Source: Xylanibacter ruminicola 23
GTDB taxonomy: Bacteria; Bacteroidota; Bacteroidia; Bacteroidales; Bacteroidaceae
Assembly: GCF_000025925.1 (NCBI RefSeq)
Contig: NC_014033.1
Span: 2,730,001-2,762,000 of the forward strand
DNA: 32,000 bases
Direction: 5' to 3'
Below are positions 6,925-24,142 of this stretch, piece after piece (position 1 is the stretch's first letter; each line of letters begins with the position of its first letter). A model generated the notes under the pieces. The model did no database searches. It was not told the DNA's origin and saw nothing but the letters and a program-made list of their open reading frames with translations. A program made the translations under genes and the position numbers.

Positions 6925-8463
6925 TTAGGACAGATCGGAAGGACTGATTCCAAATTCATCCTTGAAACACTTGGTAAAGTAGCTGGGGGCGGTGAAACCA
7001 ACCTCGTAGGCAACCTCGGCGATGGTCTTATCGCCTTTTACCAGTAACTGATAGCCGCGATTCAATCGGGCAGAACGCAACAGCTCGACAGGCGACGAAC
7101 CAGAGATGGCCTTAACTTTACGGTACAGCTGTACACGACTCAGATTCATAGCAGCAGCCAAATCATCAACAGTCAGATCACTGTCGGAGAGACGGGCCTC
7201 GACCACATCCTTGAAGCGCACAATGAATAGCGGCTCCTTGGCCGATTCAGCAGCCTCATCTTCGGGTTGAACGACGGGCTGTGCAGCCGCAGGCTGTTGA
7301 TCGGCAGGCCGTACCGGCTCAGCTGGTGCCTTCATGTTCCACAGGTTATTGACAATACGCTCGCGCTGGGCCGACACTCTGGAACGATGATAGAGGATAA
7401 AGAGTACTAATATAAGTACCAGCAATGCCAACAAGACGAGTGCCAGCAACGAGATGGTGCGCTGTGTTGACAGTTGTTCAAGATAGCTGGCGGCTTTTTT
7501 CTGAAGTTTAATCAGATTATGCGCCTGGCGCACCACTTCGTCGCTTTCGAGTAACAGCACCGTAGCATTATCGCGGGTTACCAAAGCCGAGGTAAACAAG
7601 GTTTCTCTTGGATATTCTTTGCCATCGAGGATGTCGAGGGCCAGTTGTAGCAGTTGGTCGCCATGTGTAGGATAGATATACGAGGCATCGAGGAGCGAAT
7701 CGCGCACCTGTTGGATACCACCATCAGGTCCTGGCAAGGCATCGATACCACAGAACATGGGCAGTTTGGCGCCTCGTTCTTCGAAGGCCTTACGGGCCCC
7801 AATAGCAGAACGATCGTTATGTCCGAAAACCAGATCGATACTATTCATATCGCCCTTCCAGTTCTTAACGGCCTGATAAGCCGTAGGCTCAGTCCAGTCG
7901 CCTTGTATTTCGGCCACCACCTTAATATCGGGATAGGCTGCCAAAGCCACATGGAAGCCATTATAACGCTCCTCGGCAGGCGATGAACCTTTCAGTCCTT
8001 TCACTTCCATTATCTGCCCCTTACCACCAAGTTGGGTAGCGATGTATTCACCCATCAGGTGTCCCATCTCGTAGTTATCAGCACTCACAAAGGCTGAATA
8101 TTTTCGCGAGTCGGTTTTACGTTCGAACACGATAACGGGGATGCCCTTATCGTAGGCACGGTCGATAGCAGGCGACACCGACGAGAGCTGGTTGGGAGCC
8201 ACAATCAGCAGATTGATACCACTTTCCACCAGACTGTCTATCTGTTTACTCTGAAGTTCAGAATCGTCGTGAGCAGCAGTAAAGCGTAGTTCTACGCCCT
8301 CATGAAAGTTGGCCTCCATTCTCATCTCGGCGTTCTGCCAATCGCGCCAGATATCCTCAGAGCATTGCGATACACCTATTATATATTTAGGCTCGGCTTG
8401 TTTGCATCCCATGAACAGGATGGCCGTAAACATTAAAATAGAAATGAAAGAGTTTCTCATCAT
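6925..8463 (-). CDS. membrane-spanning one-component regulator: periplasmic sugar-binding (PBP type I) domain, TM helix, P/A/Q linker and AraC-type HTH
   Basis: 512 aa from MMRNSF. The signal or anchor has a lipobox-like LFMGC. A ribose-binding-protein-like domain (IGVSQCSEDIW...FGHNDRSAIGA...) spans about nt 7549-8385. A single TM helix ISLLALVLLALLVLILVLFILY lies at nt 7390-7455. The linker APAEPVRPADQQPAAAQPVVQPEDEAAE follows, and the C-terminal AraC HTH (nt 6928-7230) includes IAEVAYEVGFTAPSYFTKCFKDEFGISPS. I see no H-box, ATPase or receiver motifs. Confidence 0.85.
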   Translation of the reverse strand: MMRNSFISILMFTAILFMGCKQAEPKYIIGVSQCSEDIWRDWQNAEMRMEANFHEGVELRFTAAHDDSELQSKQIDSLVESGINLLIVAPNQLSSVSPAIDRAYDKGIPVIVFERKTDSRKYSAFVSADNYEMGHLMGEYIATQLGGKGQIMEVKGLKGSSPAEERYNGFHVALAAYPDIKVVAEIQGDWTEPTAYQAVKNWKGDMNSIDLVFGHNDRSAIGARKAFEERGAKLPMFCGIDALPGPDGGIQQVRDSLLDASYIYPTHGDQLLQLALDILDGKEYPRETLFTSALVTRDNATVLLLESDEVVRQAHNLIKLQKKAASYLEQLSTQRTISLLALVLLALLVLILVLFILYHRSRVSAQRERIVNNLWNMKAPAEPVRPADQQPAAAQPVVQPEDEAAESAKEPLFIVRFKDVVEARLSDSDLTVDDLAAAMNLSRVQLYRKVKAISGSSPVELLRSARLNRGYQLLVKGDKTIAEVAYEVGFTAPSYFTKCFKDEFGISPSDLS

Positions 8464-8483
8464 TGATCTCTGTTTTATGCAGG

Positions 8484-8491
8484 CAAATATA
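8484..8491 (-). promoter_or_regulatory. -7 promoter box TATATTTG (minus strand) for the regulator gene
   Basis: The plus strand reads CAAATATA, 21 nt upstream of the ATG at 8463. Confidence 0.5.
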
Positions 8492-8559
8492 CGAAATAAT
8501 CGCGAAACACGAAAACAAATTGATATTTTTTTGTATATTTGCAAGAGATAATAAGAATA

Positions 8560-8617
8560 ATCGTTCATAAATTAGCAAAAATGTTACATTGAAACAAAAA
8601 TAGGACGCAATGAACGA
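8560..8617. promoter_or_regulatory. candidate operator: split inverted repeat ATCGTTCAT / GCAATGAACGA upstream of susC
   Basis: ATCGTTCAT lies at 8560-8568 and GCAATGAACGA at 8607-8617. The same 9-mer and 11-mer recur at 16833-16869 before the second operon of the locus. Confidence 0.5.
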
Positions 8618-8647: not shown

Positions 8648-8655
8648 TAATTTTG
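8648..8655 (+). promoter_or_regulatory. -7 promoter box TAATTTTG for the susC operon (alternative box TATATTTG at 8534-8541)
   Basis: TAnnTTTG match, 50 nt before the susC ATG. The alternative box would give a 164-nt leader. Confidence 0.45.
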
Positions 8656-8704
8656 TGCAGGATTTAAAATCAGATTTGAGTACTAACAATTAAAACAAGC
8701 AACA

Positions 8705-11700
8705 ATGGAAAGACTAAAGAAACGTTTTCTGTGTTTTGCTCTCTTGCTCGTAAGTACAATGATGTATGCACAGACAGAGATCAGTGGTACGGTGATAGAT
8801 GCTACAGGCGAAGCTGTCATCGGTGCTACAGTAAAGGAGAAGGGGACCACGAACGGTACAGTAACCGATTTCGATGGAGCCTTCACCATCAAAGTGAACG
8901 AGAATGCCACTCTGGTTATCTCGTACATCGGCTACCAGACACAAGAGGTACCTGCGAAACAAGGTATGAAGGTAACTATGAAAGACGACAGCGAACTTCT
9001 GAAGGAGGTTGTGGTAACAGGTTATACCACCCAGCGCAAGGCCGATCTGACGGGTGCCATCTCGACCGTAAGCGTAGACGAGATTGCCAAGCAGAACGAG
9101 AACAACCCAATGAAGGCACTGCAGGGTCGTGTACCAGGCATGAATATCACAGCCGATGGTAATCCTTCGGGTGCTGCAACGGTCCGTATCCGTGGTGTAG
9201 GAACCCTGAACGACAACGATCCACTTTACATCATCGACGGTGTGCCCACAAAGGCTGGTATGCATGAGTTGAACGGTAACGATATCGAGAGCATCCAGGT
9301 GCTGAAGGATGCAGCTTCTGCCAGTATCTATGGTAGCCGCGCCGCCAACGGTGTGATCATCATCACCACCAAGAAGGGTAAGGACGGCAAGGTAAAGGTG
9401 AACTTCGACGGCAGTGTGGCCACCTCGTTCTATACTAATAAGATTGAGACCATGAACGCCAGCGAGTGGGGACGCGCATACTGGCAGGCTTGCGTGAACG
9501 ATGGTGTGAACCCAAGCAACAATAACCTAGGATACAACTACGACTGGAGCTACGACGCTAAAGGCAATCCCGTACTGAATAATATGACTATGAACATGTA
9601 TCTGGACGAGAACGCCAGTGTACGTGCAGGTGATACAGACTGGTTCGATGAGATTACGCGCACAGGCGTGGTACAGCAGTACAACCTCTCGGTAAGCAAC
9701 GGCTCGGAGAAGGGCAGTTCATTCTTCAGCATTGGCTACTACGACAACCAAGGTACCATTAAGAAGAGTAACTTCAACCGTCTGTCGGCTCGTGCTAATG
9801 CAGACTATAAGCTGTTCGATGGCAAGGTAGTGATTGGTGAGAACTTCACCATGAACCGTACCAAGGGCAATGACGCTCCTGGCGGAGTGCTGGAGCACGC
9901 ACTTGAGTTTAACCCTAACTTCCCTATATGGGCAGAGAACGGTAAATATGCTCAGGCACTGGGTGCCTACTCTGAGCGCGAGAACCCTCTGAGCATGATT
10001 GATAATAACAAGGACAACGAATACACACAGTGGCGCTCATTCGGCGATGTGCACCTGAGCATCACCCCATTCAAGAACTTTATGGTTCGCACCACACTGG
10101 GTATGGACTATACACAGAAGGAGCAGCGCTTCTTTACCTACCCTATCGAAAATGGTAAGGTTAAGCGTACCGATAGCGCTGTTGAAAGCAAGCAGGAACA
10201 CTGGATGCGCTGGATGTGGAACGCCATTGCTACCTATAATCTTGAAATCGGCAAGCATCGCGGCGATGCCATGATTGGTACAGAGGTGAACCGTCAGGAC
10301 TATAAGTGGAATAGTGCCAAGCGCTATGAACTGGCTATTCTGAACACCGACTATATGTGGCCAAGTGCTGGTGCAGGCAAGCAGTTAGCCGAAGGTTCAG
10401 GCGAAGGATTCAGTCTTCTGTCATTCTTCGGTAAAGTGAACTACACCTACGACGACAAGTATCTGGCATCTGTCACCATCCGTCGCGACGGTTCGAGCCG
10501 ATTCGGTAGCAACAACCAGTATGGTACATTCCCATCAGTATCAGCTGGTTGGCGCATCTCAGAAGAGAAGTTTATGGCTAAGACAAAGAGCTGGCTCGAC
10601 AATCTGAAACTTCGCTATTCTTGGGGACAGACTGGTAACCAAGAAATCTCAAACACTTCACGATACACCCTCTACAAGTCGGTAGTATCTACTGGACTAT
10701 GGGGCAGCGGACAGGCTGGTTCTTCATACGACATCAGCGGTAAGAACGGTGGTTACGACCTGGCGAACGGTTATGTACGCAATCAGCGCGGTAACGACGA
10801 CATCAAGTGGGAAACCACCACACAGCATAATATAGGTATTGATTTCGCTATCCTGCGAAACGAAATCTACGGTAGTTTCGACTGGTTCAACAAGAAGACC
10901 ACCGACATTCTGCTCTTCATGGAAGGTATCGCTGCTATGGGTGAAGGATCTGGTCAGTGGATCAATGCCGGCGAGGTGAAGAACAACGGTTGGGAACTGA
11001 GCATTGGCTATCGCCACCAGTTGGATAACGGTTTTTCGTGGGATATCAACGGAAACATCAGTAAGTATGTGAATGAGATTACAAAACTGCCTGAGACAGT
11101 AGCTGCCAACGGTAAGTATGGTGGTAACGGCGTGAAGAGTGTTGTAGGTCATCCTATGTTTTCACAGGTTGGCTACATCTACGACGGCATCTTCAAGAGT
11201 CAGGAGGAGATTGACAATCATGCCACACAGGAAGGTGCAGGACTGGGCCGAATCCGTTATAAGGATCTTAACGGCGATGGCATCATCACAGAGGCCGATC
11301 AGGACTGGATATATGACCCAACACCCGACTTCACTTGGGGTCTGAACATCTACCTGCAGTACAAGGACTGGGATATGACCATGTTCTGGCAGGGCGTACA
11401 GGGTGTTGATGTAGACTGTCGCGGATATAAGTCGCAGACCGACTTCTGGGCCAACTCTGCCATCAACGTTCCTTATCTGAACAAGGGTAAGCGTGCACTC
11501 GACGCTTGGAGTCCAGCTAATCCTGGCAGCAATATCCCTGCCCTCACCACATCGGATACCAACAACGAGGGTCGTGTATCATCTTACTACATTGAGAACG
11601 GTTCGTATGCCAAGCTGCGCACCATACAGCTGGGCTACAACCTGCCCAAGAAGGTTACAGAGAAACTACACATGGACCGCATCCGTGTATATGCCTCGGC

Positions 11701-11815
11701 TCAGAATCTCATTACCATCAAGAGCGGCAAGTTTACTGGTGCCGATCCTGAGAACCCTGGATTCAACTATCCTATACCTCTCAACCTTACATTTGGTGTG
11801 AACGTAGGATTCTAA
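8705..11815 (+). CDS. susC: SusC/RagA-family TonB-dependent outer-membrane transporter
   Basis: 1036 aa. It has a signal peptide, an N-terminal carboxypeptidase-regulatory-like domain (ISGTVIDATGEAVIGATV), the TonB box/plug region (EVVVTGYTTQRKADLTGAIS), and the NGVIIITTKKG motif. The C-terminal residue is F. There is no STN domain. Confidence 0.95.
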   Translation: MERLKKRFLCFALLLVSTMMYAQTEISGTVIDATGEAVIGATVKEKGTTNGTVTDFDGAFTIKVNENATLVISYIGYQTQEVPAKQGMKVTMKDDSELLKEVVVTGYTTQRKADLTGAISTVSVDEIAKQNENNPMKALQGRVPGMNITADGNPSGAATVRIRGVGTLNDNDPLYIIDGVPTKAGMHELNGNDIESIQVLKDAASASIYGSRAANGVIIITTKKGKDGKVKVNFDGSVATSFYTNKIETMNASEWGRAYWQACVNDGVNPSNNNLGYNYDWSYDAKGNPVLNNMTMNMYLDENASVRAGDTDWFDEITRTGVVQQYNLSVSNGSEKGSSFFSIGYYDNQGTIKKSNFNRLSARANADYKLFDGKVVIGENFTMNRTKGNDAPGGVLEHALEFNPNFPIWAENGKYAQALGAYSERENPLSMIDNNKDNEYTQWRSFGDVHLSITPFKNFMVRTTLGMDYTQKEQRFFTYPIENGKVKRTDSAVESKQEHWMRWMWNAIATYNLEIGKHRGDAMIGTEVNRQDYKWNSAKRYELAILNTDYMWPSAGAGKQLAEGSGEGFSLLSFFGKVNYTYDDKYLASVTIRRDGSSRFGSNNQYGTFPSVSAGWRISEEKFMAKTKSWLDNLKLRYSWGQTGNQEISNTSRYTLYKSVVSTGLWGSGQAGSSYDISGKNGGYDLANGYVRNQRGNDDIKWETTTQHNIGIDFAILRNEIYGSFDWFNKKTTDILLFMEGIAAMGEGSGQWINAGEVKNNGWELSIGYRHQLDNGFSWDINGNISKYVNEITKLPETVAANGKYGGNGVKSVVGHPMFSQVGYIYDGIFKSQEEIDNHATQEGAGLGRIRYKDLNGDGIITEADQDWIYDPTPDFTWGLNIYLQYKDWDMTMFWQGVQGVDVDCRGYKSQTDFWANSAINVPYLNKGKRALDAWSPANPGSNIPALTTSDTNNEGRVSSYYIENGSYAKLRTIQLGYNLPKKVTEKLHMDRIRVYASAQNLITIKSGKFTGADPENPGFNYPIPLNLTFGVNVGF

Positions 11816-11819
11816 TTGA

Positions 11820-11847
11820 ATTGATAAATGAAAATTGATAAATGAAA
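11820..11847 (+). repeat. perfect tandem 14-mer (ATTGATAAATGAAA x2 plus a partial third copy) in the susC-susD spacer
   Basis: Bases 11820-11833 are identical to 11834-11847. A third partial copy runs into the susD start region. Confidence 0.85.
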
Positions 11848-11857
11848 ATTGATGATT

Positions 11858-13603
11858 ATGAAAACAATATATAGATCAATCTGCGCAATCTGCGTCATCT
11901 GTGGTTTCATGAGCTGCTCCAACTTCCTGGAAGAGCAGGTACCACAGGCCACACTGACACAGGACGAGGTGAAGAACCCAGAATATATAGACAATGTGCT
12001 GATATCAGCATACGCCGGACTGGTTTCGATTGAGGATATGAACGCATCTTTCTCACTCTGGAACTACGACACACGAAGCGACGACGCATACGTTGGCGGT
12101 TCAGACTTCTCTGATGGTGAACCATTCCACCGCTTGGAAAAGAGCACTGGCGTGATGACTACCGACTGGCCTTTCAGCTCGATTTGGACACGTTTCTACA
12201 ATTATCTGAGCCGCGTAAGTCTGTCGCTCGACATTCTGGCCAGCGCCGATCAGGAGAACGCCACCATCAAGCAGCGTACTGCCGAGATGAAGTTCCTGCG
12301 TGCTTACGGACACTTCCAGCTGAAGCGCCTGTTCAAGAAGATTCCATTCGTGAACAAGCCCAACATGACGGAAGAGGACTACAACAACCTTTCGAACACG
12401 GAATACACCAACGACGAGGGCTGGCAGCAGATTATCAACGATCTGGAGGATGCTTACGCCGTACTGCCTGTTACCCAGGCCGACAAGGGACGCCCCACAA
12501 AGGCTGCATGTGCCGCATTCCTGGCTAAGGTTTATCTCTATAAGGCTTATCATCAGGACGATGCCAACAGCAATCAGGTGACATCTATCAGCGATGCCGA
12601 CCTACAGAAGGTGGTAGAATACACCAATCCATCCATCTACACTGCTGCCGGCTATGGTCTGGAGCCCGACCTGCACAATAATTTCCGCCCTGAGGAGCAG
12701 TATGAGAACGGCAAGGAGAGTATCTGGGCCATCCAGTACTCAAGAAACGATGGTACCGTATATGGTAACCTGAACTTCTCATACCGTCTGATTGTACCAT
12801 GTATCCCTAAGGTTCACGACTCTGGTTGCGATTTCTACAAGCCATCACATAATCTGGTAAGTGCTTATCGTACCAACAGCGACGGTCTGCCCATGCTCGA
12901 TACTTTTGCTGATACTGAATACACCGTAGGTTCAGCACAGACTGTAGATCCAAGATTGTTTGTAACAGTAGGCGTACCAGGTACCCCTTATATGTTCAAT
13001 ACAAGCTTTATGATTGCAGAGAGCAATGCTTGGAGCCGCTCAGGTGGCACATTCGGATACTTTGTATCGCTGAAGCAGAATGTTGATCCTGCGCTGACAG
13101 ACAGCTATCTATATCTGTGCGACTCGCAGTGGGCAAGTTCGATGAACCGCATCGTTCTTCGCTATGCCGACGTACTATTGATGCGCGCTGAGGCTCAGGC
13201 ACAGTTAGGGCAGACATCTGAGGCTATTGCACTGGTTAATCAGGTTCGTGAGCGTGCTGCAGGCATGATTACAAGCAGTGTTGTATCTAACTATCCTAAT
13301 AAGTATGGTGTACACTATGCAGTAGGTAAGTACAGCGGCAGTTACAGCAAGGACGAGGCCATGAAGATTGTGAAGATGGAACGCCGACTGGAGTTGGCTA
13401 TGGAGAGTGAGCGTTTCTTCGACCTGGTACGCTGGGGCGATGCGGCTACAGTACTTAACAAGTACTACTCTACAGAGAGTGAGAAGATGAACTTCCTGAG
13501 CGGATCGCAGTTTACTGCCAACAAGAATGAGTACCTACCCGTACCATTCGAACAGATGGCTGCATCTAACGGACACTACACCCAGAACTGTGGACAGTGG
13601 TAA
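11858..13603 (+). CDS. susD: SusD/RagB-family nutrient-binding outer-membrane lipoprotein
   Basis: It lies directly downstream of susC. The lipoprotein signal is MKTIYRSICAICVICGFMSC, and the TPR-like SusD core includes RAYGHFQLKRLF and LLMRAEA. Starts at 11849 (TTG) or 11852 are also possible. Confidence 0.93.
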   Translation: MKTIYRSICAICVICGFMSCSNFLEEQVPQATLTQDEVKNPEYIDNVLISAYAGLVSIEDMNASFSLWNYDTRSDDAYVGGSDFSDGEPFHRLEKSTGVMTTDWPFSSIWTRFYNYLSRVSLSLDILASADQENATIKQRTAEMKFLRAYGHFQLKRLFKKIPFVNKPNMTEEDYNNLSNTEYTNDEGWQQIINDLEDAYAVLPVTQADKGRPTKAACAAFLAKVYLYKAYHQDDANSNQVTSISDADLQKVVEYTNPSIYTAAGYGLEPDLHNNFRPEEQYENGKESIWAIQYSRNDGTVYGNLNFSYRLIVPCIPKVHDSGCDFYKPSHNLVSAYRTNSDGLPMLDTFADTEYTVGSAQTVDPRLFVTVGVPGTPYMFNTSFMIAESNAWSRSGGTFGYFVSLKQNVDPALTDSYLYLCDSQWASSMNRIVLRYADVLLMRAEAQAQLGQTSEAIALVNQVRERAAGMITSSVVSNYPNKYGVHYAVGKYSGSYSKDEAMKIVKMERRLELAMESERFFDLVRWGDAATVLNKYYSTESEKMNFLSGSQFTANKNEYLPVPFEQMAASNGHYTQNCGQW

Positions 13604-13648
13604 GAATCGAGTTAAGATTTAACAATTAAGAATTTAGAGTTAAGAGTT

Positions 13649-15037
13649 ATGAAAACGATATATAGCATTATCTGCGCAATATGCATCGTATGCGGGCTCA
13701 CCGCTTGTAACGATGATCATACGGGCAGCATCGACGTAAGCGGTTCATGCTTGGTTGAGAAGTTTGTCCTGAACGGACAATACGAAGGTACCATCAACAC
13801 AGAGAAGCGACTGGTAAAAGTAAAAGTGCCCGTAGATTTCGCCCAGAAGGGTGATATGGAGATAACCAGTCTGACCGTATCAGCTGGTGCACAGACCAAT
13901 ATGAAGGTAGGTGACCACATCAACTTTGATGCCGATCGCAATCTTCACATCAGCAATGGCGACTTGGTGATGGACTATCAGGTAAGCGTAAGAAATGACG
14001 AGGCTCTGATGTCGCTCTTTATCCTTGAGGGTGTGAAAGGTGCCATCAACCAGCAAGACAAGACTATCACAGTAAGCGTGATGGCTAACAGCGGTATCGA
14101 CCTGAGCAATGCAACATTCGAGGTTGAATGCAGCGAGGATGCCACATGTAGTCCAGCAAGCGGCACTAAGGGCAACTTCACTGAGCCATTCCAGATTACA
14201 CTCAACGATAATACTGCTACCACAGTTTATACGGTTTACGTAACACTGATTGAGGATCCTATCGCACTGTTTGTTGGCGATGCTGAGAACATCGAACTGC
14301 TGAACGATGAGGAGAAGGCCGCTGCCAAGTGGCTCACTGGTAACATCGCAAGCGCTGCCTACGCATCGTGGAGCGACGTAGCTGGCGGTAACATCTCGCT
14401 CGAGAAGTGTAAGCTGATATTCTTCCACCGTCATTGCTCATCGTATGGCAATTACAACGGATTTGCTGAGGCTGAGCAGGGCGCTATGACAGCACTGGCT
14501 AAGATGAAGGAATACTGGCAGAAGGGTGGCGCATTCGTACTGGGACGTAGCGCTGTGAACTATGCTATTGCACTGGGTGCTATGCCTGAGGACGCTTATC
14601 CAAACAATGTTTGGGGCGGCGGAGGCGGCGAAGGCTCCGACCTGATGGGCGACGATCCTTGGCATACATGGGCCTACGACGCTGCTCACCCACTATGGAA
14701 AGGACTCACCACCTATCCAGGAGCACCTGAAAACGCCATCTACACACTCGACAATGGCTACACCATCTGTAACACCACATCACAGTACGGATTCTGGGAT
14801 ACCTATCAGGATGGTAAGGATGCATTCGAGGCCAAGACTGGTGGACGCGCACTGACTGGCGACAACAGCGTGAACGCCTGGGAGTTGAAGAGTGCTAACG
14901 GCGAATTTGGCAAGGGTGGTATCATCTGTCTGGGCTCAGGCCTCTACGACTGGAACTCTCCTACTCCATACGAGTCGATCTATCACGAAAACATGGGCAA
15001 GATTATGCTCAACGCATTTGATTATCTAACAAAATAA
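13649..15037 (+). CDS. surface lipoprotein, probable glycan-binding protein of the fructan locus (DUF4960-like C-terminal domain)
   Basis: The lipobox is GLTAC followed by NDD, an acidic surface-export signature. Its position after susD matches that of the BT1761-type protein in Bacteroides fructan loci. The family assignment is from memory only. Confidence 0.7.
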   Translation: MKTIYSIICAICIVCGLTACNDDHTGSIDVSGSCLVEKFVLNGQYEGTINTEKRLVKVKVPVDFAQKGDMEITSLTVSAGAQTNMKVGDHINFDADRNLHISNGDLVMDYQVSVRNDEALMSLFILEGVKGAINQQDKTITVSVMANSGIDLSNATFEVECSEDATCSPASGTKGNFTEPFQITLNDNTATTVYTVYVTLIEDPIALFVGDAENIELLNDEEKAAAKWLTGNIASAAYASWSDVAGGNISLEKCKLIFFHRHCSSYGNYNGFAEAEQGAMTALAKMKEYWQKGGAFVLGRSAVNYAIALGAMPEDAYPNNVWGGGGGEGSDLMGDDPWHTWAYDAAHPLWKGLTTYPGAPENAIYTLDNGYTICNTTSQYGFWDTYQDGKDAFEAKTGGRALTGDNSVNAWELKSANGEFGKGGIICLGSGLYDWNSPTPYESIYHENMGKIMLNAFDYLTK

Positions 15038-15049
15038 AAACAGAAAGTT

Positions 15050-16648
15050 ATGAAGACAATGATATATTCAGTATTCGCACTCATGCTGTCAGCCTCTGCG
15101 CTGACGGCGTGCAGCGATGACGAGTTCAGCGGCGACCCCGCTAAGGACTGGAACGGCACAACCACATTCTTCGCTTCGACTGATGCTGCCGGCTTTGGCA
15201 CCTATTACACACCTTCAGTGGGACGCGTAGGCGACCCTATGCCATTCTACGATCAGAAGGCTGGCGACTTCAAGGTACTCTACCTGCAGGAGTTTACTAA
15301 CAACATGCCCTATCGCTTCCACCCCATTTGGGCTGTTTCTACCAAGGATGGTGCCAACTACGAGTCGATGGGCGAGCTGATTCCATTCGGAGCCAACGAC
15401 TACCAGCAAGATGCTGCCTTAGGAACAGGTTGCGCCTATGAGAAGGACGGCACATATTACATCTATTATACTGGTCATAACGGCAACTGCAAAAACCGCG
15501 AAGTTGTTATGCGAGCTACATCTACCGACTTCAAGACATGGACTAAGGATGAGCTTTGGGCACTGAATGGTCCTGACTTCGGTTACTCAAGCAATGACTT
15601 CCGCGACCCACAGATTTTCGTAGCCGACGACAACCTCTACCACATGGTTATCTCTACCTATCCCAATGGTGGTGGCGACCCCTGTTTTGCAGAGTTCAAG
15701 TCGAGCGACCTGAAGAACTGGGAGCATGTAGGTCGTATCCGTATGATCTGGGATCGCATGTTGGAGTGTCCTGACATCTTCAAGATGGGCAACTACTGGT
15801 ACATCGTGTTCAGCGAGAGCTATCGCGCCAGCTGGAGCCGTAAGGTGAAATACATGGTAGCCTCAACCTACGAGGAGCTGAAGAGTTGTTTGAACGACGG
15901 ACCAAAGTGGGCTCCTGACGGACACGAGGGTGTGCTCGACAGCCGTTCGCTCTATGCCGCCAAGACTGCTTCTAACGGCACAGACCGTTACATCTGGGGA
16001 TGGTGCCCATTCCGTTCTGGTAGCGATATTCACGAGAAGAACACCAACGTAGGTGCTGGCGACGGCAACGAGCCTAACTGGAGTGGTGCACTGGTTTGTC
16101 ACAAGATTATCCAGCACAGCGATGGTACACTTACTCTGGGTGCTGTGCCTGCAATGGCTGCCAAGTACAATCAGACTGTTAATGCTACAGTGATGGAATC
16201 GAATGGCTACAACAGTGGTTCACTGAGCGGCGATGGAGCATACGTACTCTACAACCGTCTGGGCACATCCAACCACATCTCGTTCACCGTAAAGACTTCT
16301 AACGTCTGGGATAAGTTTGGTGTATCGTTCGTACGTGGCACAGATTCTAAGAAGTACTACACCATCGTAGTGAACCCCGAGGACGATAACCACCGCAAGC
16401 TCAATTTCGAGCAGGAAGGCGAAGAAGGCAAGGGCTTCATCGAGGCCGCTGATGGCTACTGGTTCGAGCGTCCCGCCGACAACACCTACAACATCGACAT
16501 CTACACAGACAACAGCGTCCTGACACTTTACATTAACGATGTATGTGCCTACACCCAGCGCATCTACGGCATCCAGAAGAACTGCTGGAGCATCAACAAC
16601 TACGGCGGCTCAATCACAGTTAGCGATGTGAAGGTAAGCCAGCAATAA
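15050..16648 (+). CDS. glycoside hydrolase family 32, surface lipoprotein (candidate endo-fructanase) with a C-terminal beta-sandwich
   Basis: The lipobox is LTAC followed by SDDE. Three GH32 catalytic blocks are present: a divergent nucleophile block VGDPMPFYD...FKVLYLQ, the RDP block FRDPQIF, and the EC block LECPDIF. Confidence 0.88.
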   Translation: MKTMIYSVFALMLSASALTACSDDEFSGDPAKDWNGTTTFFASTDAAGFGTYYTPSVGRVGDPMPFYDQKAGDFKVLYLQEFTNNMPYRFHPIWAVSTKDGANYESMGELIPFGANDYQQDAALGTGCAYEKDGTYYIYYTGHNGNCKNREVVMRATSTDFKTWTKDELWALNGPDFGYSSNDFRDPQIFVADDNLYHMVISTYPNGGGDPCFAEFKSSDLKNWEHVGRIRMIWDRMLECPDIFKMGNYWYIVFSESYRASWSRKVKYMVASTYEELKSCLNDGPKWAPDGHEGVLDSRSLYAAKTASNGTDRYIWGWCPFRSGSDIHEKNTNVGAGDGNEPNWSGALVCHKIIQHSDGTLTLGAVPAMAAKYNQTVNATVMESNGYNSGSLSGDGAYVLYNRLGTSNHISFTVKTSNVWDKFGVSFVRGTDSKKYYTIVVNPEDDNHRKLNFEQEGEEGKGFIEAADGYWFERPADNTYNIDIYTDNSVLTLYINDVCAYTQRIYGIQKNCWSINNYGGSITVSDVKVSQQ

Positions 16649-16711
16649 AATCTAGCAAATGGTTAAATGTTAGTTAGTAATAAGGTAATAGATTGGTTTT
16701 GAGTAACAACG

Positions 16712-16740
16712 GTGCGGCTCATGAGAGTCGCACTTTTTTT
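16712..16740 (+). terminator. intrinsic terminator after the first GH32; it splits the locus into two transcription units
   Basis: GTGCGGCTC-ATGA-GAGTCGCAC forms a 9-bp stem with one G.U pair, followed by T7. Confidence 0.8.
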
Positions 16741-16754
16741 ATTAAGTGTAGTAT

Positions 16755-16799
16755 TTGCAAAGTACCTAGAAAACAATTGCACGCCAGGTACTTTGCAAT
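16755..16799. repeat. perfect 13-bp inverted repeat with a 19-nt spacer
   Basis: TTGCAAAGTACCT (16755-16767) is the exact reverse complement of AGGTACTTTGCAA (16787-16799). Confidence 0.9.
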
Positions 16800-16832
16800 T
16801 GAAAAGTAGTTAGAGAATTAAACCTTTCAATT

Positions 16833-16869
16833 ATCGTTCATTGCATATAAATTTGTTGCAATGAACGAT
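16833..16869. promoter_or_regulatory. candidate operator: perfect 13-bp inverted repeat ATCGTTCATTGCA-N11-TGCAATGAACGAT bracketing a TAAATTTG box
   Basis: The arms at 16833-16845 and 16857-16869 are exact reverse complements. The spacer contains TAAATTTG (16848-16855). The half-sites are shared with 8560-8617. Confidence 0.55.
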
Positions 16870-16919
16870 TTTTCTTAAGAAATGAAACATTATTTATAGG
16901 ATATACACGCGATTTGACT

Positions 16920-16927
16920 TAACTTTG
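16920..16927 (+). promoter_or_regulatory. -7 promoter box TAACTTTG for the GH32/MFS/fructokinase operon
   Basis: TAnnTTTG+CA match, 31 nt before the ATG at 16958. The alternative box at 16848-16855 is noted in the previous entry. Confidence 0.5.
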
Positions 16928-16957
16928 CAGCAGAAATCTAAAATCGTACAACAAAAA

Positions 16958-18628
16958 ATGAATAGCAAAATGAGAAAAACGGTAATGATGATGGTGACAG
17001 CCGTGCTTACCTCTGCATCGGCAATGGCGCAGGTAACGCCTATGGTGCTGGGCGAGAAGCATGCCATGCTACGAGTGGAACAACCAAGCAAATACTTGCT
17101 GCTGCCCGTACAGGAAACTGAGGACATTGCAGCAATAGCTGTGGTAAACGGGAAGAACGAGATGGTGCAGCGCATCAATGTGAAGTTGGCAGTAGACCGC
17201 GTAGACTATTATGTGCCCTATGAACTGAAAGATGCCCAGCTGCTCGACATCGAGTTTCATGGCGACCGCCGTCTGAAAGGTGCCGTAGGCGAGTTCGCCT
17301 GTTGGAAGGAAATCAAATACTCCGATACATATGACACCACAAACCGTGAGCATTTCCGCCCCGTATATCATCACACCCCAGCTTATGGTTGGATGAATGA
17401 CCCGAATGGTATGTTCTACAAAGATGGTGTTTGGCATCTCTTCTATCAGTACAACCCTTATGGTTCACAATGGGAGAACATGCACTGGGGCCACTCTACG
17501 TCGAAAGACCTGGTGCATTGGGAAGCACAGCCACAGACATTCGAGCCCGACTGGTTGGGTAGCATCTTCAGTGGCTCATGTATCACCAACGGAGATGATG
17601 TAGTAGCCTTCTACACCTCAGCCGGTCACCACCAGACACAGTCGATGGCCATATCAAAAGACGGTGGAATGACATTCAAGAAATATGAAGGAAACCCTAT
17701 ACTGACCAGCGACAAGCCCGACTTCCGCGACCCCAATGTGTTCTGGTTTGAGGGCACCAAGCGCTGGGTGATGATCCTGGCAGTGGGTCAGGAGATGCAG
17801 CTCTACTCGTCAGAGAACCTAAAAGACTGGAAATACGAGTCAGCTTTCGGTCAGGAGTATGGCAATCACGGTGGCGTTTGGGAGTGCCCAGACCTGATGA
17901 AAATCGACAACAAGTGGGTGCTTATCTGCAACATCAATCCTGGCGGCCCATTCGGAGGTAGTGCTACACAGTACTTTGTGGGACAGTTCGACGGACATAA
18001 GTTTACCTGCGAGTCGATGCCAAAGGTGACCAAGTGGATGGATTATGGTAAGGATCACTACGCTACCGTATCATTCTATAACGCACCCGAGAACCGCCAT
18101 GTGGTGCTGGCGTGGATGAGCAACTGGCAGTACGCCAACCAGGTGCCAACCAAGCAGTATCGCTCGGGCAACAGTATACCTCGCGACCTGGGACTGTTTA
18201 ACTTTGGCGAGGAGACATACGTAAGCGTAGTACCATCGAAGGAGATGCTGGCTATGCGTGGCGCCAAAGTGAGGAAGCCTACTGAGGCTTGCGAGATAGT
18301 AGTGGACGTGAAGAATCAGGCGGAGATTGTGCTCTCGAACTCAAAGGGCGAAGAGGTTGTGATGGTTTACGACGGACAGCGCCAGAGCTTCAGCATGGAC
18401 CGCACAAAGAGTGGCGACGTGAGCTTCAGCGAAGCATTCGCATGCACAACTATCGCGCCCACCTATGGACATATCAAACAGCTGCGATTGTTTATCGACC
18501 GCTGTTCTATCGAGGCCTTCGATGCAGAAGGAAAGATGGCAATGACAAACCTGGTATTCCCATCAGAACCTTATAATAACATAAAGGTGAAGGGCGGAAA
18601 GGCGACCATATATGAGATTAAGAAGTAA
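16958..18628 (+). CDS. glycoside hydrolase family 32, periplasmic (candidate exo-beta-fructosidase)
   Basis: The SPase-I type signal ends ASAMAQ. Canonical GH32 blocks are present: WMNDPNGMFY..WHLFYQYNP, FRDPNVF and WECPDL. The ATG at 16958 is preferred to the TTG at 16925, which overlaps the promoter box. Confidence 0.93.
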   Translation: MNSKMRKTVMMMVTAVLTSASAMAQVTPMVLGEKHAMLRVEQPSKYLLLPVQETEDIAAIAVVNGKNEMVQRINVKLAVDRVDYYVPYELKDAQLLDIEFHGDRRLKGAVGEFACWKEIKYSDTYDTTNREHFRPVYHHTPAYGWMNDPNGMFYKDGVWHLFYQYNPYGSQWENMHWGHSTSKDLVHWEAQPQTFEPDWLGSIFSGSCITNGDDVVAFYTSAGHHQTQSMAISKDGGMTFKKYEGNPILTSDKPDFRDPNVFWFEGTKRWVMILAVGQEMQLYSSENLKDWKYESAFGQEYGNHGGVWECPDLMKIDNKWVLICNINPGGPFGGSATQYFVGQFDGHKFTCESMPKVTKWMDYGKDHYATVSFYNAPENRHVVLAWMSNWQYANQVPTKQYRSGNSIPRDLGLFNFGEETYVSVVPSKEMLAMRGAKVRKPTEACEIVVDVKNQAEIVLSNSKGEEVVMVYDGQRQSFSMDRTKSGDVSFSEAFACTTIAPTYGHIKQLRLFIDRCSIEAFDAEGKMAMTNLVFPSEPYNNIKVKGGKATIYEIKK

Positions 18629-18658
18629 GAATTTAGAATTTAGAGAATATTTAGTAAT

Positions 18659-19810
18659 ATGAAGAAATTTGCTCTGATCCCCGTGATGTTCTGCTTTTTC
18701 GCCATGGGATTTGTCGACCTGGTGGGCATTGCATCGAACTATGTGAAGGAAGACCTGCAGTTGACAGACAGCGTGGCCAACATCTTCCCGTCGCTCGTAT
18801 TCTTCTGGTTCCTGATCTTCAGCGTACCTACGGGGATGCTGATGAACAAGATCGGACGAAAGAACACTGTACTGCTGTCGCTCGGCGTGACCATCGCATC
18901 GCTGCTATTGCCTCTGTTTGGCGAGAACTTCCCGATTATGCTCTGCGCATTCTCGCTGCTTGGTATTGGTAACGCACTGATGCAGACATCGCTTAACCCA
19001 CTGGTATCAACCGTGATGGGCGGCGGCAATCTGGCATCGACACTCACCTTCGGACAGTTTATCAAGGCCATCGCCTCGTTCTTGGCTCCATATCTGGCCA
19101 TGTGGGGCGCCACACAGGTACTGCCTTCGTTCGGCTACGACTGGCGAGTGCTGTTTATGATCTACTTCGTGGTGGGTATTCTGGCTGCAGCACTGCTGGC
19201 AGTTACGCCTATCGAAGAAGAACACACCACAGGCAACGCATCTACATTTACTGAATGCCTGAAGCTGCTAGGCACACCTATCGTACTGCTATCATTCTTT
19301 GGTATCATGTGTCACGTAGGTATCGACGTGGGCACCAACACCACAGCGCCAAAGATTCTGATGGAACGACTGGGACTGACACTTAACGACGCAGCATTTG
19401 CTACCAGTCTGTACTTCATATTCCGTACTATCGGCTGCCTGACAGGCTCTTTCTTCCTGCGAGTACTGCCTAATCGCACATTCTTCGTAATAAGCGTAGT
19501 GATGATGGCGCTATCGATGTGCGGACTCTTTATCGGCACAGAAAAATGGATTCTCTACGCAGCAATCGCACTGGTGGGCTACGGCAACTCAAATATCTTC
19601 TCTATCTGTTTTGCACAGGCACTCACAGCCATGCCACAGAAGCAGAACGAGGTGTCGGGTTTGATGATTATGGGCTTGTTTGGAGGCACGATTTTTCCAC
19701 TGCTGATGGGAATTGCCAGCGACGCCATGGGCCAGGCCGGCGCAGTAGCAGTAATGGCTGTTGGAGTGATTTATCTGTTTACCTATATTAAAAACGTAAA
19801 AAACAACTAA
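18659..19810 (+). CDS. MFS sugar transporter (FucP / glucose-galactose transporter-like), probable fructose importer
   Basis: 383 aa with about 12 hydrophobic segments. It sits between a GH32 and a fructokinase, as in Bacteroides fructan loci. Confidence 0.85.
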   Translation: MKKFALIPVMFCFFAMGFVDLVGIASNYVKEDLQLTDSVANIFPSLVFFWFLIFSVPTGMLMNKIGRKNTVLLSLGVTIASLLLPLFGENFPIMLCAFSLLGIGNALMQTSLNPLVSTVMGGGNLASTLTFGQFIKAIASFLAPYLAMWGATQVLPSFGYDWRVLFMIYFVVGILAAALLAVTPIEEEHTTGNASTFTECLKLLGTPIVLLSFFGIMCHVGIDVGTNTTAPKILMERLGLTLNDAAFATSLYFIFRTIGCLTGSFFLRVLPNRTFFVISVVMMALSMCGLFIGTEKWILYAAIALVGYGNSNIFSICFAQALTAMPQKQNEVSGLMIMGLFGGTIFPLLMGIASDAMGQAGAVAVMAVGVIYLFTYIKNVKNN

Positions 19811-19815
19811 GTATT

Positions 19816-20691
19816 ATGAAGAGATATATAGTAGGCCTCGGAGAGGCATTGTGGGACGTACTTCCCGAAGGAAAGAAACTTGGTGGCGCACCAGCCAACT
19901 TCGCTTATCATGCTGGACAATTTGGTCTGAATACTATTGCCATCAGCGCACTAGGCGAAGATGCATTGGCAGAGGAAACTATCGAGGCGCTGAAGGAGCA
20001 CAATCTGAACTACCTGATGCCCCAGGTACCCTATCCTACCGGTACGGTACAAGTGACGCTAACGGGCGACGGCATACCCACCTATGACATTAAGGAAAAC
20101 GTAGCATGGGACAATATCCCCTTTACCGACGAGATGGAGGAGATAGCCAAGAATGCACGTGCAGTTTGTTTCGGATCGCTGGCACAGCGCAACGTAGTAA
20201 GTCGTGAGAATATACGTAAGTTCCTGGATGCCACCCCTGAAGACTGTATAAAAATCTGCGACATCAACCTGCGCCAACAGTTCTACACGAAGGAGATTCT
20301 TGAGGACTCGTTCTGCATTTGTAACATTCTAAAAATCAACGACGAAGAGTTGGTAGTGGTTAACCGCATGTTCGGCTACGACGGACTGGATATGCGCGGT
20401 ACCTGCGAGAAGATAGTTCAGGACTATCAACTGAAGATGCTGGTACTAACCTGCGGCACTAACGGATCGTATGTATTTACCGACGACGGTCTGACATCGT
20501 TCCAGGATACGCCAAAGGTAGAAGTGGCCGATACAGTAGGCGCTGGCGACTCGTTTACCGGCTCGTTCTGTGCATCAATCATCAACGGGAAACCCGTACA
20601 GGAAGCCCATAAAATCGCCGTCAGAGTAAGTGCCTTTGTATGCACCCAGAACGGTGCCATGCCCGTGATTCCAGAAGAGCTGAAAAAGTAA
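19816..20691 (+). CDS. PfkB-family carbohydrate kinase, probable fructokinase
   Basis: 291 aa. The N-terminus GLGEALWDVLP..KLGGAPANFA and the C-terminal motif DTVGAGDSF are typical of the ribokinase/PfkB family. Confidence 0.9.
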   Translation: MKRYIVGLGEALWDVLPEGKKLGGAPANFAYHAGQFGLNTIAISALGEDALAEETIEALKEHNLNYLMPQVPYPTGTVQVTLTGDGIPTYDIKENVAWDNIPFTDEMEEIAKNARAVCFGSLAQRNVVSRENIRKFLDATPEDCIKICDINLRQQFYTKEILEDSFCICNILKINDEELVVVNRMFGYDGLDMRGTCEKIVQDYQLKMLVLTCGTNGSYVFTDDGLTSFQDTPKVEVADTVGAGDSFTGSFCASIINGKPVQEAHKIAVRVSAFVCTQNGAMPVIPEELKK

Positions 20692-20904: not shown

Positions 20905-22518
20905 ATGGCAAAGTTAGATTTGACTCAGTATGGCATTACAGGTTCTACCGTAATTGCACACAATCCATCGTATGAGACTCTGTTCGCAGAGGAGACAAAG
21001 GCTGGCCTCGAGGGTTTCGACAAGGGCGTAAACACCGAGCTCAACGCTGTAAACGTAATGACTGGTATCTACACCGGCCGTTCACCTAAGGATAAGTACA
21101 TCGTAAAGGATGCACAGAGCGAGGACAAGGTATGGTGGACTTCTGAGGAATATAAGAACGACAACCACCCCATGAGCGAGGAGGTTTGGAAGCAGGTTAA
21201 GGACATCGCTATCAAGGAGCTCTCTAACAAGAACCTCTATGTAGTAGATGCTTTCTGCGGTGCTAACGAGGCTACACGTCTGGCTGTTCGCTTCATCGTT
21301 GAGGTAGCATGGCAGGCACACTTCGTAACAAACATGTTCATTCAGCCTACTGCTGAGGAGCTGGAGAAGTTCGAGCCTAACTTCGTAATCTACAACGCCT
21401 CTAAGGCTAAGGTTGAGAACTACAAGGAGCTGGGTCTGAACTCAGAGACTTGTGTTGCCTTCAACACAACAAGCCGCGAGCAGTGCATCATCAACACATG
21501 GTACGGTGGTGAGATGAAGAAGGGTATGTTCTCAATGCAGAACTACTATCTGCCTCTGCAGGGTATCGCTTCAATGCACTGCTCTGCTAACACCGACATG
21601 GAGGGTAAGAACACAGCTATCTTCTTCGGTCTGTCTGGTACAGGTAAGACCACTCTGTCAACCGATCCAAAGCGTCTGCTGATTGGTGACGACGAGCACG
21701 GATGGGACGACGAGGGCGTATTCAACCTCGAGGGTGGTTGCTACGCTAAGGTTATCAACCTTGACAAGGAGAGCGAGCCCGATATCTACAATGCTATCCG
21801 TCGTAACGCTCTGCTCGAGAACGTAACTGTTGCTGAGGATGGTAAGATCGACTTCGCTGATAAGAGCGTAACTGAGAATACTCGTGTATCATATCCTATC
21901 GACCACATCGAGAAGATTGCCCAGAAGGTAAATGGTAAGAGTGCTGGTCCTGACGCTAAGAACGTTATCTTCCTGAGTGCTGATGCATTCGGCGTACTGC
22001 CCCCAGTATCTATCCTGACTCCTGAGCAGACTAAGTACTACTTCCTCTCTGGTTTCACAGCTAAGCTGGCTGGTACAGAGCGCGGTATCACTGAGCCTAC
22101 TCCAACATTCTCTGCTTGCTTCGGTCAGGCATTCCTCGAGCTGCACCCAACAAAGTATGCTGAGGAGCTGGTTAAGAAGATGGAGAAGAGCGGTGCTAAG
22201 GCATACCTCGTAAACACTGGTTGGAACGGTACTGGTAAGCGTATCTCTATCCGCGATACTCGTGGTATCATCGACGCTATCCTGGGTGGTGCCATCCTGA
22301 ACGCTCCTACCAAGAAGATCCCTTACTTCGACTTCGAGGTTCCAACACAGCTTGAGGGCGTTGACACCAACATCCTTGATCCTCGCGACACTTACGCTAA
22401 CGCTGCTGAGTGGGAGGAGAAGGCTAAGGATCTGGCTGGCCGTTTCATCAAGAACTTCAAGAAGTACGAGGGCAACGAGGCTGGTAAGGCTCTGGTAGCT
22501 GCTGGTCCAAAGCTCTAA
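20905..22518 (+). CDS. pckA: phosphoenolpyruvate carboxykinase (ATP)
   Basis: 537 aa with the kinase-1a motif [13 protein letters not shown], plus IGDDEHGW and NTGWNG blocks characteristic of ATP-dependent PEPCK. Confidence 0.97.
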
Positions 22519-22547
22519 TAAGAGATTTATCACTCTAAATATCAGAA

Positions 22548-22579
22548 TTGGCTGCGCCGAAAGGCGTGGCCAATTTTTT
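22548..22579 (+). terminator. intrinsic terminator after pckA
   Basis: TTGGCTGCGCC-GAAA-GGCGTGGCCAA forms an 11-bp stem with two G.U pairs, followed by TTTTTT. Confidence 0.85.
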
Positions 22580-22652
22580 GATGTAAGTCAATAAGCGACA
22601 AAACGCCCCCCAAAATTTCAATTCTCAATTTTCAATTCTCAATTAATCTTTG

Positions 22653-22660
22653 TACCTTTG
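22653..22660 (+). promoter_or_regulatory. -7 promoter box TACCTTTG for the small-ORF transcript
   Basis: TAnnTTTG+CA, the identical octamer to the tRNA-Pro promoter. It is followed by a 7-bp hairpin, TGTAATC-GGGA-GATTACA (22665-22682). Confidence 0.5.
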
Positions 22661-22729
22661 CACTTGTAATCGGGAGATTACATGTATTTCATTAGGTTTT
22701 TTATTAGTTAGATTTTAAGGTAAAAGATT

Positions 22730-22825
22730 ATGTTATTAGATTTTCAAACAACTGTTATGTTAGTAACGGTTGGATTATCTGCCGGCCTGAGCATTTATAC
22801 GCTCATGCATACTAACATACGTTGA
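22730..22825 (+). CDS. candidate small hydrophobic protein, 31 aa (MLLDFQTTVMLVTVGLSAGLSIYTLMHTNIR)
   Basis: ATG at 22730 preceded by an A-rich stretch, and TGA at 22823-22825. One predicted TM helix. It has its own promoter box upstream and a terminator 4 nt downstream. It falls below the ORF-track size cut-off. Coding status is unproven, and the transcript could be a non-coding RNA. Confidence 0.35.
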   Translation: MLLDFQTTVMLVTVGLSAGLSIYTLMHTNIR

Positions 22826-22828
22826 ATT

Positions 22829-22864
22829 GAGTGCGGGGTGAGTGATTCATACCGCGCTCTTTTT
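22829..22864 (+). terminator. intrinsic terminator of the small-ORF transcript
   Basis: GAGTGCGG (22829-22836) pairs with CCGCGCTC (22852-22859), an 8-bp stem followed by TTTTT. Confidence 0.7.
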
Positions 22865-24140: not shown

Positions 24141-24142
24141 CA

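Follow-up and report, generated by a model that had tools for sequence, protein, structure and literature searches.

A relay-free sensor-regulator, apparently derived from hybrid two-component systems, beside a fructan locus of Xylanibacter ruminicola

Introduction

[quoted passage not shown] A 32,000-nucleotide stretch of the Xylanibacter ruminicola 23 genome (contig NC_014033.1, positions 2,730,001 to 2,762,000; hereafter the window, whose own numbering is used throughout) poses this question in a reduced form. Divergent from a fructan polysaccharide utilization locus (PUL) lies a minus-strand gene at 6925..8463 whose 512-residue product carries a periplasmic binding protein (PBP) sugar sensor and an AraC-type DBD on one membrane-spanning chain, without a phosphotransfer module. 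Is this a working regulator, from what did it arise, and could a periplasmic sugar be signalled to DNA with no phosphorelay? From sequence comparison and a predicted structure we consider it probable that the protein is a functional, inner-membrane-anchored one-component activator of the adjacent fructan locus, derived from an HTCS. Membrane-bound one-component regulators are a functional class and not a homology family.

Sensor and DNA-binding domain joined without a phosphorelay

A Pfam search, reported to E ≤ 1, places Peripla_BP_4 on residues 39-283 (E 4e-45; 154.7 bits against a cut-off of 35.1) and HTH_18 on residues 435-510 (E 1.5e-19), with HTH_AraC also matched and no further family above threshold in the protein. 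HisKA (PF00512), HATPase_c and Response_reg find no Pfam match in it even at E ≤ 1, nor do the family-specific hidden Markov models (HMMs) of these three modules that we built from 77 full-length relatives. NCBIfam returns sub-threshold similarity only, to sugar-binding proteins and AraC regulators, and DUF6377, below threshold at E 0.06 (13.4 bits; cut-off 36.7), is matched over the transmembrane (TM) region only. Kyte-Doolittle hydropathy gives a single TM segment at residues 337-359 (peak 3.67), followed by the basic stretch HRSRVSAQRER. The AlphaFold2 (AF2) model, computed with a 25-sequence alignment, has a mean predicted local distance difference test (pLDDT) score of 82.6 and comprises a confident PBP fold (pLDDT > 90), one unbroken helix over residues 300-375 that forms the periplasmic stalk, the TM segment and the juxtamembrane region, a segment modelled as disordered at 377-410 (pLDDT < 50) and an AraC DBD folded into helices at 409-504; between the TM helix and the DBD it contains neither HATPase_c nor any extra fold. 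Pfam, NCBIfam, the family HMMs and the AF2 model together reveal no hidden relay domain in this protein. An earlier first-pass annotation of the window had read the gene as a sensor, a TM helix, a low-complexity linker and an AraC helix-turn-helix (HTH) with no kinase or receiver, and had proposed domain searches as the check; these detect neither module in the frame, Pfam, the custom HMMs and AF2 bear out the architecture, and the boundaries drawn then (PBP 7549-8385, TM 7390-7455, HTH 6928-7230) agree with ours to within a few codons.

Read from the N-terminus, with all coordinates on the minus strand, the protein opens with a signal peptide bearing a lipobox, seen in the sequence at residues 1-20 (8404..8463; ...LFMGC, ending in Cys20). 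Cys20 (8404-8406) does not vary among 25 short forms drawn from Prevotellaceae and Muribaculaceae, and a lipobox-like motif is found in ~77% of relatives, long and short alike; the sensor is thus probably held by a lipid anchor at one end and a TM anchor at the other and not by two flanking TM helices. The periplasmic PBP type I sugar-sensor domain follows at residues 25-290 (7594..8391), as defined by Peripla_BP_4, the AF2 model and the match to the solved periplasmic domain of BT1754 (2x7x), the HTCS_Fru of Bacteroides thetaiotaomicron; it has the type I sugar-binding fold behind an export signal, and many sugar-binding PBP structures match it. In the AF2 model and the 2x7x alignment a pre-TM periplasmic helix at residues 300-336 (7456..7566) runs on into the single TM helix, residues 337-359 (7387..7455), which hydropathy and the basic residues behind it define. 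Next come a juxtamembrane segment kept across the window clade, residues 360-376 (7336..7386; RSRVSAQRERIVNNLWN), a disordered tether of ~33 residues rich in Pro, Ala, Gln and Glu, residues 377-409 (7237..7335; pLDDT < 50), which among relatives is hypervariable in both length and sequence, and the AraC-type DBD with its two HTH motifs, residues 410-512 (6928..7236), which includes E410 and K449 and is supported by HTH_18 and by a match to the structure 12aw.

The coding sequence, 512 codons and a stop, is present in the list of open reading frames, and its product is identical to WP_177168175.1 of Xylanibacter ruminicola, a record named 'AraC family transcriptional regulator / substrate-binding domain-containing protein'. 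The open minus-strand frame extends over 6925-8568 and would encode 547 residues from its first ATG. We take 8463 as the likely start because the upstream ATG at 8568 falls within an operator-like copy of the octamer ATGAACGA, discussed below, and because homologues are ~510 residues long. The 530-residue database representatives P0001 and P0002 probably differ in their upstream start calls.

Relation to BT1754-type hybrid systems

The first-pass annotation had set the protein beside BT1754, and the comparison is apt. Among solved structures the closest relative of the sensor is 2x7x (E 9e-81), aligned over residues 25-337 including the stalk helix at roughly 55% identity as counted from the alignment, and that of the HTH is the AraC part of 12aw, an HTCS receiver-DBD structure (E 3e-20). 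The two proteins share a homologous PBP sensor through to the pre-TM helix, a single TM helix after the sensor and a homologous C-terminal AraC DBD. The window protein differs in being ~400 residues shorter, without HisKA, HATPase_c and receiver and so without a phosphorelay.

A search over 1.84 billion representative sequences returned 639 relatives at E < 1e-30, and the best 150 of these were classified with HMMs of the five HTCS modules from the 77 full-length relatives. Full HTCSs account for 78 of the 150 and window-like proteins, with PBP and HTH modules only, for 45; a further 10 are PBP-HisKA-REC-HTH proteins that lack the ATPase (720-755 residues), 3 are PBP-HisKA-HTH proteins and 2 carry a receiver (REC) remnant. 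Thirteen of the 150 are fragments or incomplete, namely 12 outside these counts and P0209 (396 residues, without a TM segment), which is among the 45. The window protein's 120 closest homologues are without exception of the PBP and HTH type. Precomputed Pfam lists in the database show the intermediates independently: P0473, for example (741 residues, 62 members), has HisKA and Response_reg and no HATPase_c.

The nearest longer relatives of the window clade are P0122, without ATPase, and P0125, a full HTCS. When the protein is aligned with these and with P0124 and P0494, clean in-frame gaps fall at the dimerization and histidine phosphotransfer (DHp) domain, at the catalytic ATPase (HATPase_c) domain and at REC. 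In the MAFFT alignment the juxtamembrane RIVNNLWNM stands opposite EQVNKILNV, NLINEILDF and QLVDEILTL at the HisKA end of longer relatives, a weak hint that these nine residues survive from where DHp helix 2 ends. Taken together, the alignments indicate that the regulator is descended from a BT1754-type HTCS through in-frame loss of DHp/HisKA, ATPase and REC. The first-pass annotation had offered a one-component factor and an in-frame deletion derivative of an HTCS as two readings of the gene; both are right, given the relay deletions in the alignment and the stepwise intermediates.

Apparent repeated loss of the relay

In a neighbour-joining tree of the sensor and DBD, short and long forms are intermixed. 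The internal branches of this tree are short, and we rely not on its topology but on nearest-neighbour identities and on the differing junctions. For the 41 short representatives in the tree the nearest neighbour is a full HTCS in 18 cases, an ATPase-less form in 4 and a form with a receiver remnant in 2; such nearest pairs include P0154 with P0144 (62% identity) and P0146 with P0137 (61%), and separate short lineages are mutually <50% identical. A TM segment with basic residues is kept in 44/44 short representatives that have a PBP-HTH gap, and the distance from TM to DBD varies from 53 to 166 residues. Linkers also differ in type, being heptad-rich (QRDELEEQRD...) in many short lineages and acidic and Pro-rich in the window clade.

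The ATPase-less PBP-HisKA-REC-AraC forms, of ~720-780 residues, are P0122, P0130, P0132, P0137, P0138, P0147, P0148, P0215, P0242 and P0473. Both the acceptor His and the Asp are intact in 9/10 of them and the [SC]HIP motif of the receiver is present in 9/10, and in the three HisKA-only forms the acceptor His is lost. Because the 45 short forms interleave with the 78 full HTCSs and because intermediates exist, the short and intermediate forms can be read as a decay series, which indicates that in-frame loss of the phosphorelay has been repeated. A bolder reading, to which we give about an even chance, is that the whole relay is dispensable in the PBP-sensor branch of the Bacteroidales HTCSs and has been discarded many times independently, leaving bona fide ligand-regulated transcription factors in which sugar bound in the periplasm sets the occupancy of promoters solely through the geometry or association of tethered DBDs; the order of loss in this reading, which shares its even standing, would be the ATPase domain, then the acceptor His and receiver, then the DHp hairpin.

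The ATPase-less forms cannot autophosphorylate alone; small-molecule phosphodonors might supply them, or they might serve solely as a phosphatase or lock. The same architecture is assigned to loci L078, L079 and L081, with matches of ~2.15 kb.

Conservation and selection

A product of deletion could be the non-functional relic of a truncated HTCS, or an artefact of annotation or assembly, and the demonstrable derivation of the gene from an HTCS by deletion fits such a history. We find it scarcely credible, for the ~510-residue frame is intact both in genomes of isolates and across hundreds of independent contigs that back short-form clusters of constant length, and the gene abuts upp at 6871 with no leftover kinase or receiver coding in any frame. 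The first-pass annotation had named a strain-specific deletion as one outcome that would undo its proposal, and this fails. More than 100 clusters at 90% identity share the length and domains of the window protein and are 71-95% identical to it; a scan of species-representative genomes gave 410 relatives, of which the best 80 were inspected and are nearly all ~1.5-kb matches, that is, short forms, from rumen Prevotellaceae, and ~75 species genomes carry the short form. Isolates with it include X. ruminicola D31d, Ga6B6 and KHT3 and Prevotella sp. khp7, P6B1, MA2016 and ne3005, and Muribaculaceae hold a separate short clade.

Selection on the gene is strongly purifying. In comparisons with orthologues at a synonymous divergence (dS) of ~0.9-1.2, the ratio of nonsynonymous to synonymous divergence (dN/dS) is 0.03-0.06 in the sensor, ~0.03 in the stalk helix, 0.03-0.04 in the DBD and 0.09-0.18 in the TM and juxtamembrane segments, well below 1 in every folded part; the tether, at 0.2-0.6, is the only relaxed part. 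Of the sensor columns that are at least 90% conserved in the 78 full HTCSs (n=36), short forms match 93% and the window protein 33/36; for the corresponding DBD columns (n=14) the figures are 93% and 14/14. The short form is, on this sequence record, not a strain-specific deletion and is evidently functional.

Receiver-contact residues in the short forms

HTCS receivers suppress their DBD through a conserved contact between the receiver motif S/CHIP, an Asp of the first DBD helix and a Lys of the first recognition helix, and mutations in this interface increase HTCS DNA binding without phosphorylation (Gao, Wu and Stock, PMC11253607). With its receiver the window protein has also lost this S/CHIP-D-K lock, a further difference from BT1754. 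The remaining partners can be placed in it, as E410 and K449 are spaced by 39 residues, exactly as D1344 and K1383 are in BT4124. An acidic residue at 410 is present in 76/78 long forms and 30/44 short forms (Fisher p 9e-6), Lys at 449 in 76/78 and 35/44 (p 0.002) and both in 75/78 and 22/44 (p 2.5e-9), p-values that overstate the evidence, the sequences being phylogenetically non-independent. The DNA-binding positions R448, K451, R466 and G489, taken as controls, show no difference between long and short forms, and the [SC]HIP motif itself occurs in 0/44 short forms and 66/78 long forms. The receiver-contact residues nevertheless appear relaxed in short forms, in the direction expected if the lock is gone and DNA binding is kept.

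These same observations feed the main rival to regulation by ligand, constitutive activity after loss of the lock. In this account the DBD has been always competent since REC was lost, induction is left to other factors such as global carbohydrate regulators or substrate import, and the periplasmic domain serves only as an anchor or dimerizer. The suppression of the DBD by REC in HTCSs, the gain of DNA binding in interface mutants and the relaxed contact residues of the REC-less short forms all fit it. Selection on the sensor as strong as that on the DBD, and the retention of 93% of the near-invariant HTCS positions, are hard to square with a mere anchor, and a complete PBP domain is kept in all independent short lineages. 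On balance we think constitutive activity unlikely.

The fructan locus and its candidate operators

The PUL divergent from the regulator occupies 8705..20691 on the plus strand and, by Pfam, encodes SusC (8705-11815), SusD (11849-13603), a DUF4960 levan-binding surface protein, the surface glycan-binding protein (SGBP) of the locus (13649-15037), a first glycoside hydrolase of family GH32 (15050-16648), a second GH32 (16925/16958-18628), a major facilitator superfamily (MFS) transporter (18659-19810) and a PfkB fructokinase (19816-20691). The locus controlled by BT1754 is likewise of the SusC/SusD/GH32/MFS/fructokinase type. No other two-component or signalling gene lies within the 32-kb window. 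Across related loci the short regulator adjoins susC/susD in 67/84 despite rearrangements, in one of two gene orders, either divergent as in the window or co-directional as GH32-MFS-PfkB-REG-susC-susD-SGBP.

This linkage bears on the possibility that the short protein modulates a full-length paralogue, forming heterodimers through sensor and TM helices with a complete HTCS encoded elsewhere and tuning or antagonizing its output. Full-length and short forms do coexist in Prevotellaceae, and their sensor and pre-TM helix are very similar. The PUL linkage, however, belongs to the short form itself, with no second regulator near it in those 67 loci, and this form, whose DBD is fully conserved, has cognate operator repeats at the locus that encodes it; such a modulator role is in our estimate quite improbable.

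The Bacteroidetes −7 promoter consensus is TAnnTTTG, and the candidate −7 box of susC, TAATTTTG (8648..8655, plus), fits it. It lies 37 nt past the second half-site of a candidate susC operator (8590..8617, plus), identified by footprinting and a scripted comparison as a direct repeat of TGAAACA (8590-8596) and TGAACGA (8611-8617) with a 21-nt period. The blocks of this operator are conserved where the regulator is at least 76% identical. For the susC promoter, an interpretation with a single half-site and a degenerate one at +21 was rejected, the scripted comparison giving the partner TGAAACA 21 nt upstream. The candidate operator of the second GH32 (16862..16889, plus) consists of the same half-sites in the other order, TGAACGA (16862-16868) and TGAAACA (16883-16889), again with a 21-nt period, and has been kept in L001 and L002, both of them syntenic loci; the candidate −7 box of the GH32-MFS-fructokinase operon, TAACTTTG (16920..16927, plus), is again 37 nt past the second half-site. 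By scripted comparison the geometry of the TGAA(A/C)(C/G)A repeats is identical at both PUL promoters. The TTG start at 16925 given for the second GH32 by the ORF finder lies inside this −7 box, and the true start is probably the ATG at 16958-16960.

The octamer ATGAACGA occurs in 5 copies in the window against 1.2 expected, with 4/5 in the two PUL intergenic regions, and is placed in the same way in the PUL intergenic regions of L001. An inverted copy directed toward the regulator gene (8561..8568, minus), whose CGTTCAT core is kept in close relatives, is a possible autoregulation site, and a second inverted copy lies at 16834-16841 (minus). The regulator's own promoter may have its −7 box at TATATTTG (8484..8491, minus), a candidate recognized from sequence within a block, GCAAATATA, that is kept in close relatives.

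Upstream of BT1763, the susC_Fru of the BT1754 regulon, the arrangement is TGCAACA-N14-TGAAACA followed 38 nt on by TAATTTG (PMC3878776 supplement), and HTCS operators are predicted generally to be dimer-bound direct repeats ~21 bp apart (PMC3878776). The window locus thus has in common with that of BT1754 two TGNAAC-type half-sites 21 nt apart that lie 37-38 nt before a −7 box, and the output side of the short protein appears unchanged from its HTCS ancestor.

A leader of the form G(T)GCAG(C/G)A..AAT(C/T)TAAAATC directly follows both −7 boxes (8656-8676 and 16928-16948) and is kept in L001 and other relatives; this shared PUL leader could be a transcription start region or a site of post-transcriptional control. 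Two perfectly matched 13-nt arms, TTGCAAAGTACCT...AGGTACTTTGCAA, separated by an 18-nt spacer (16755-16798), form an inverted repeat ~100 nt past the stop of the first GH32. The repeat has no T-run and may be a terminator-like hairpin or the binding site of another factor.

How a sugar signal could reach DNA

We propose that GH32 enzymes would release fructose in the periplasm, where it would bind the PBP-fold sensor held between the N-terminal lipid anchor and the rigid helix that continues into the membrane. Closure of the PBP domain would then alter the packing or association of two protomers through their stalk and TM helices, and the two AraC DBDs, on flexible tethers of ~33 residues, could gain the arrangement or local concentration needed for cooperative co-occupancy of half-sites spaced by 21 bp. 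Occupancy of these sites 37 nt before the −7 box would activate the susC and GH32 promoters without phosphotransfer. Fructose is the presumptive ligand by analogy with 2x7x, from the 33/36 family-invariant columns and from the GH32 and fructokinase context; that signalling is dimer-based, and activating rather than repressing, we infer. A proximity or oligomerization switch seems more plausible in the window clade than rigid rotation because the tether is disordered, and the coiled-coil linkers of other short lineages may transmit more directly. DNA binding by a membrane-tethered protein is in itself not new and is feasible, as chromatin immunoprecipitation with an antibody to the periplasmic domain recovered target DNA, and intact HTCSs accordingly bind DNA while in the membrane (PMC3404733).

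The tether also admits another mechanism, in which a protease gains access to the tether or TM segment once sugar is bound and a freed AraC domain activates transcription in the cytoplasm. Regulated intramembrane proteolysis is established for other membrane-tethered regulators, and a long disordered Pro/Ala/Glu-rich tether does lie between membrane and DBD in the window protein. Yet no protease gene accompanies the locus, in the window or in related loci, many independent short lineages have coiled-coil-like linkers, which suggests structural coupling and not cleavage, and HTCSs, the parent family, bind DNA while still whole and in the membrane (PMC3404733). We regard release by proteolysis as decidedly unlikely.

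Several points weigh against a membrane-anchored, fructose-responsive activator. Signalling through the short forms is something that we infer from sequence, and the identity of the ligand is suggested by overall similarity and locus content. A flexible, disordered tether cannot pass on a defined rotation or piston movement, so that regulation would have to work through proximity or oligomerization. It has been argued that tethering to a dimeric kinase favours DBD dimerization and that the DBD therefore needs suppression by REC (Gao et al., PMC11253607), in which case a protein without REC is possibly constitutive. Only 13/76 related loci, those of the close relatives, have the exact ATGAACGA octamer upstream of the regulator, and it was on this count rejected as a family-wide operator; support for the operator comes from the ruminicola group and from the parallel with Bacteroides and does not extend to the whole family. 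Finally, the genetics of the Segatella copri 'HTCS^Inu' most likely concern a full 895-residue HTCS and not the short form. P0494, a full 895-residue HTCS of the BT1754 type that we assign to S. copri only provisionally, heads a cluster of 2,342 members and lies ~600 nt upstream of a minimal susC-susD-GH32-MFS-PfkB locus (L084) whose layout matches the published description of the inulin PUL of S. copri DSM 18205.

The length of the S. copri htcs^Inu protein is not stated in the text of PMC8634118, PMC11784079 or bioRxiv 10.1101/2024.04.05.588293. Assignment of the 327-member short cluster P0141 to S. copri was rejected, as this cluster is from Muribaculaceae. The ~600-nt gap at L084 may contain a small gene whose existence the locus-tag numbering implies.

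Comparison with known regulators and implications

The window protein has the membrane-flanked periplasmic sensor and the HTCS-subtype HTH_18 DBD of an HTCS and lacks HisKA, HATPase and receiver, and it is not to be filed as an HTCS. ATPase-less relatives such as P0122 and P0473 belong to the same family, are the nearest longer neighbours of the window clade and represent partial loss of the relay, still with DHp and receiver. ToxR, CadC and TcpP are also single-pass proteins in which a periplasmic sensor is joined to a cytoplasmic DBD and in which control is thought to operate through oligomerization with no phosphorylation. Their topology is opposite, with an N-terminal cytoplasmic winged-helix DBD of the OmpR type and a C-terminal periplasmic domain, and their families and ancestry differ. 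E. coli XylR has a sugar domain of the PBP / LacI-GalR fold N-terminal to an AraC DBD with two HTH motifs and is a ligand-dependent dimeric activator; unlike the window protein it is soluble and cytoplasmic, without signal peptide or TM segment, and it is absent from the best 60 sequence matches in the Protein Data Bank. SusR-type regulators resemble the window protein in being membrane-spanning and relay-free, with a periplasmic sugar sensor, a C-terminal cytoplasmic DBD and direct-repeat PUL operators (PMC3878776). The sensor and DBD families of SusR are unrelated to those found here, however, and its operator spacing is 67-77 bp as opposed to 21 bp. The sub-threshold DUF6377 match over the TM region is the sole similarity of the window protein to the SusR type.

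Our literature searches found no description or test of the short PBP-TM-AraC class, and databases hold thousands of its members under generic names. Searches that demand all HTCS domains miss fructan-locus regulators in many rumen Prevotellaceae and Muribaculaceae, and labels such as 'AraC family' or 'substrate-binding protein' on PUL regulators mask a sensor-regulator. The class is of interest because the relay has been lost recurrently, intermediates exist, the lock residues are relaxed and a minimal system is in prospect; a sensor, a helix and a DBD form a much simpler system in which to study sensor-DBD coupling. If ligand regulation is confirmed, sugar-responsive PUL control can be built without phosphotransfer. 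Should the bolder reading of a wholly dispensable relay hold, the short forms would provide a minimal model, made by nature, of how signals cross the membrane to DNA, and the HTCS relay would be a tuning layer and not the signal path. A compact fructose-sensing one-component activator with an operator of 21-bp period would also be a useful part for Bacteroidales engineering.

Further observations on the locus and window

At two related loci, L003 and L010, the regulator is 96-97% identical to that of the window, yet SusC is only 45% and SusD only 36% identical to the proteins encoded at 8705-13603, which indicates a swapped transporter pair. The proportion of synonymous differences (pS) there is 0.39-0.56 in regulator codons 1-24 as against 0.07-0.12 in the sensor, which suggests a recombination boundary within the regulator gene. 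The pattern is similar to SusC/D variation that has been reported among fructan PULs of B. thetaiotaomicron (PMC5967196).

Downstream of the PUL, at 20905-31633, the window has housekeeping genes, which encode PEPCK, a DUF6242 protein, an outer-membrane beta-barrel protein, undecaprenyl-diphosphate synthase, a BamA-like POTRA protein, OmpH and a racemase, and a tyrosine recombinase of the phage-integrase family lies at 30716-31633 on the minus strand.

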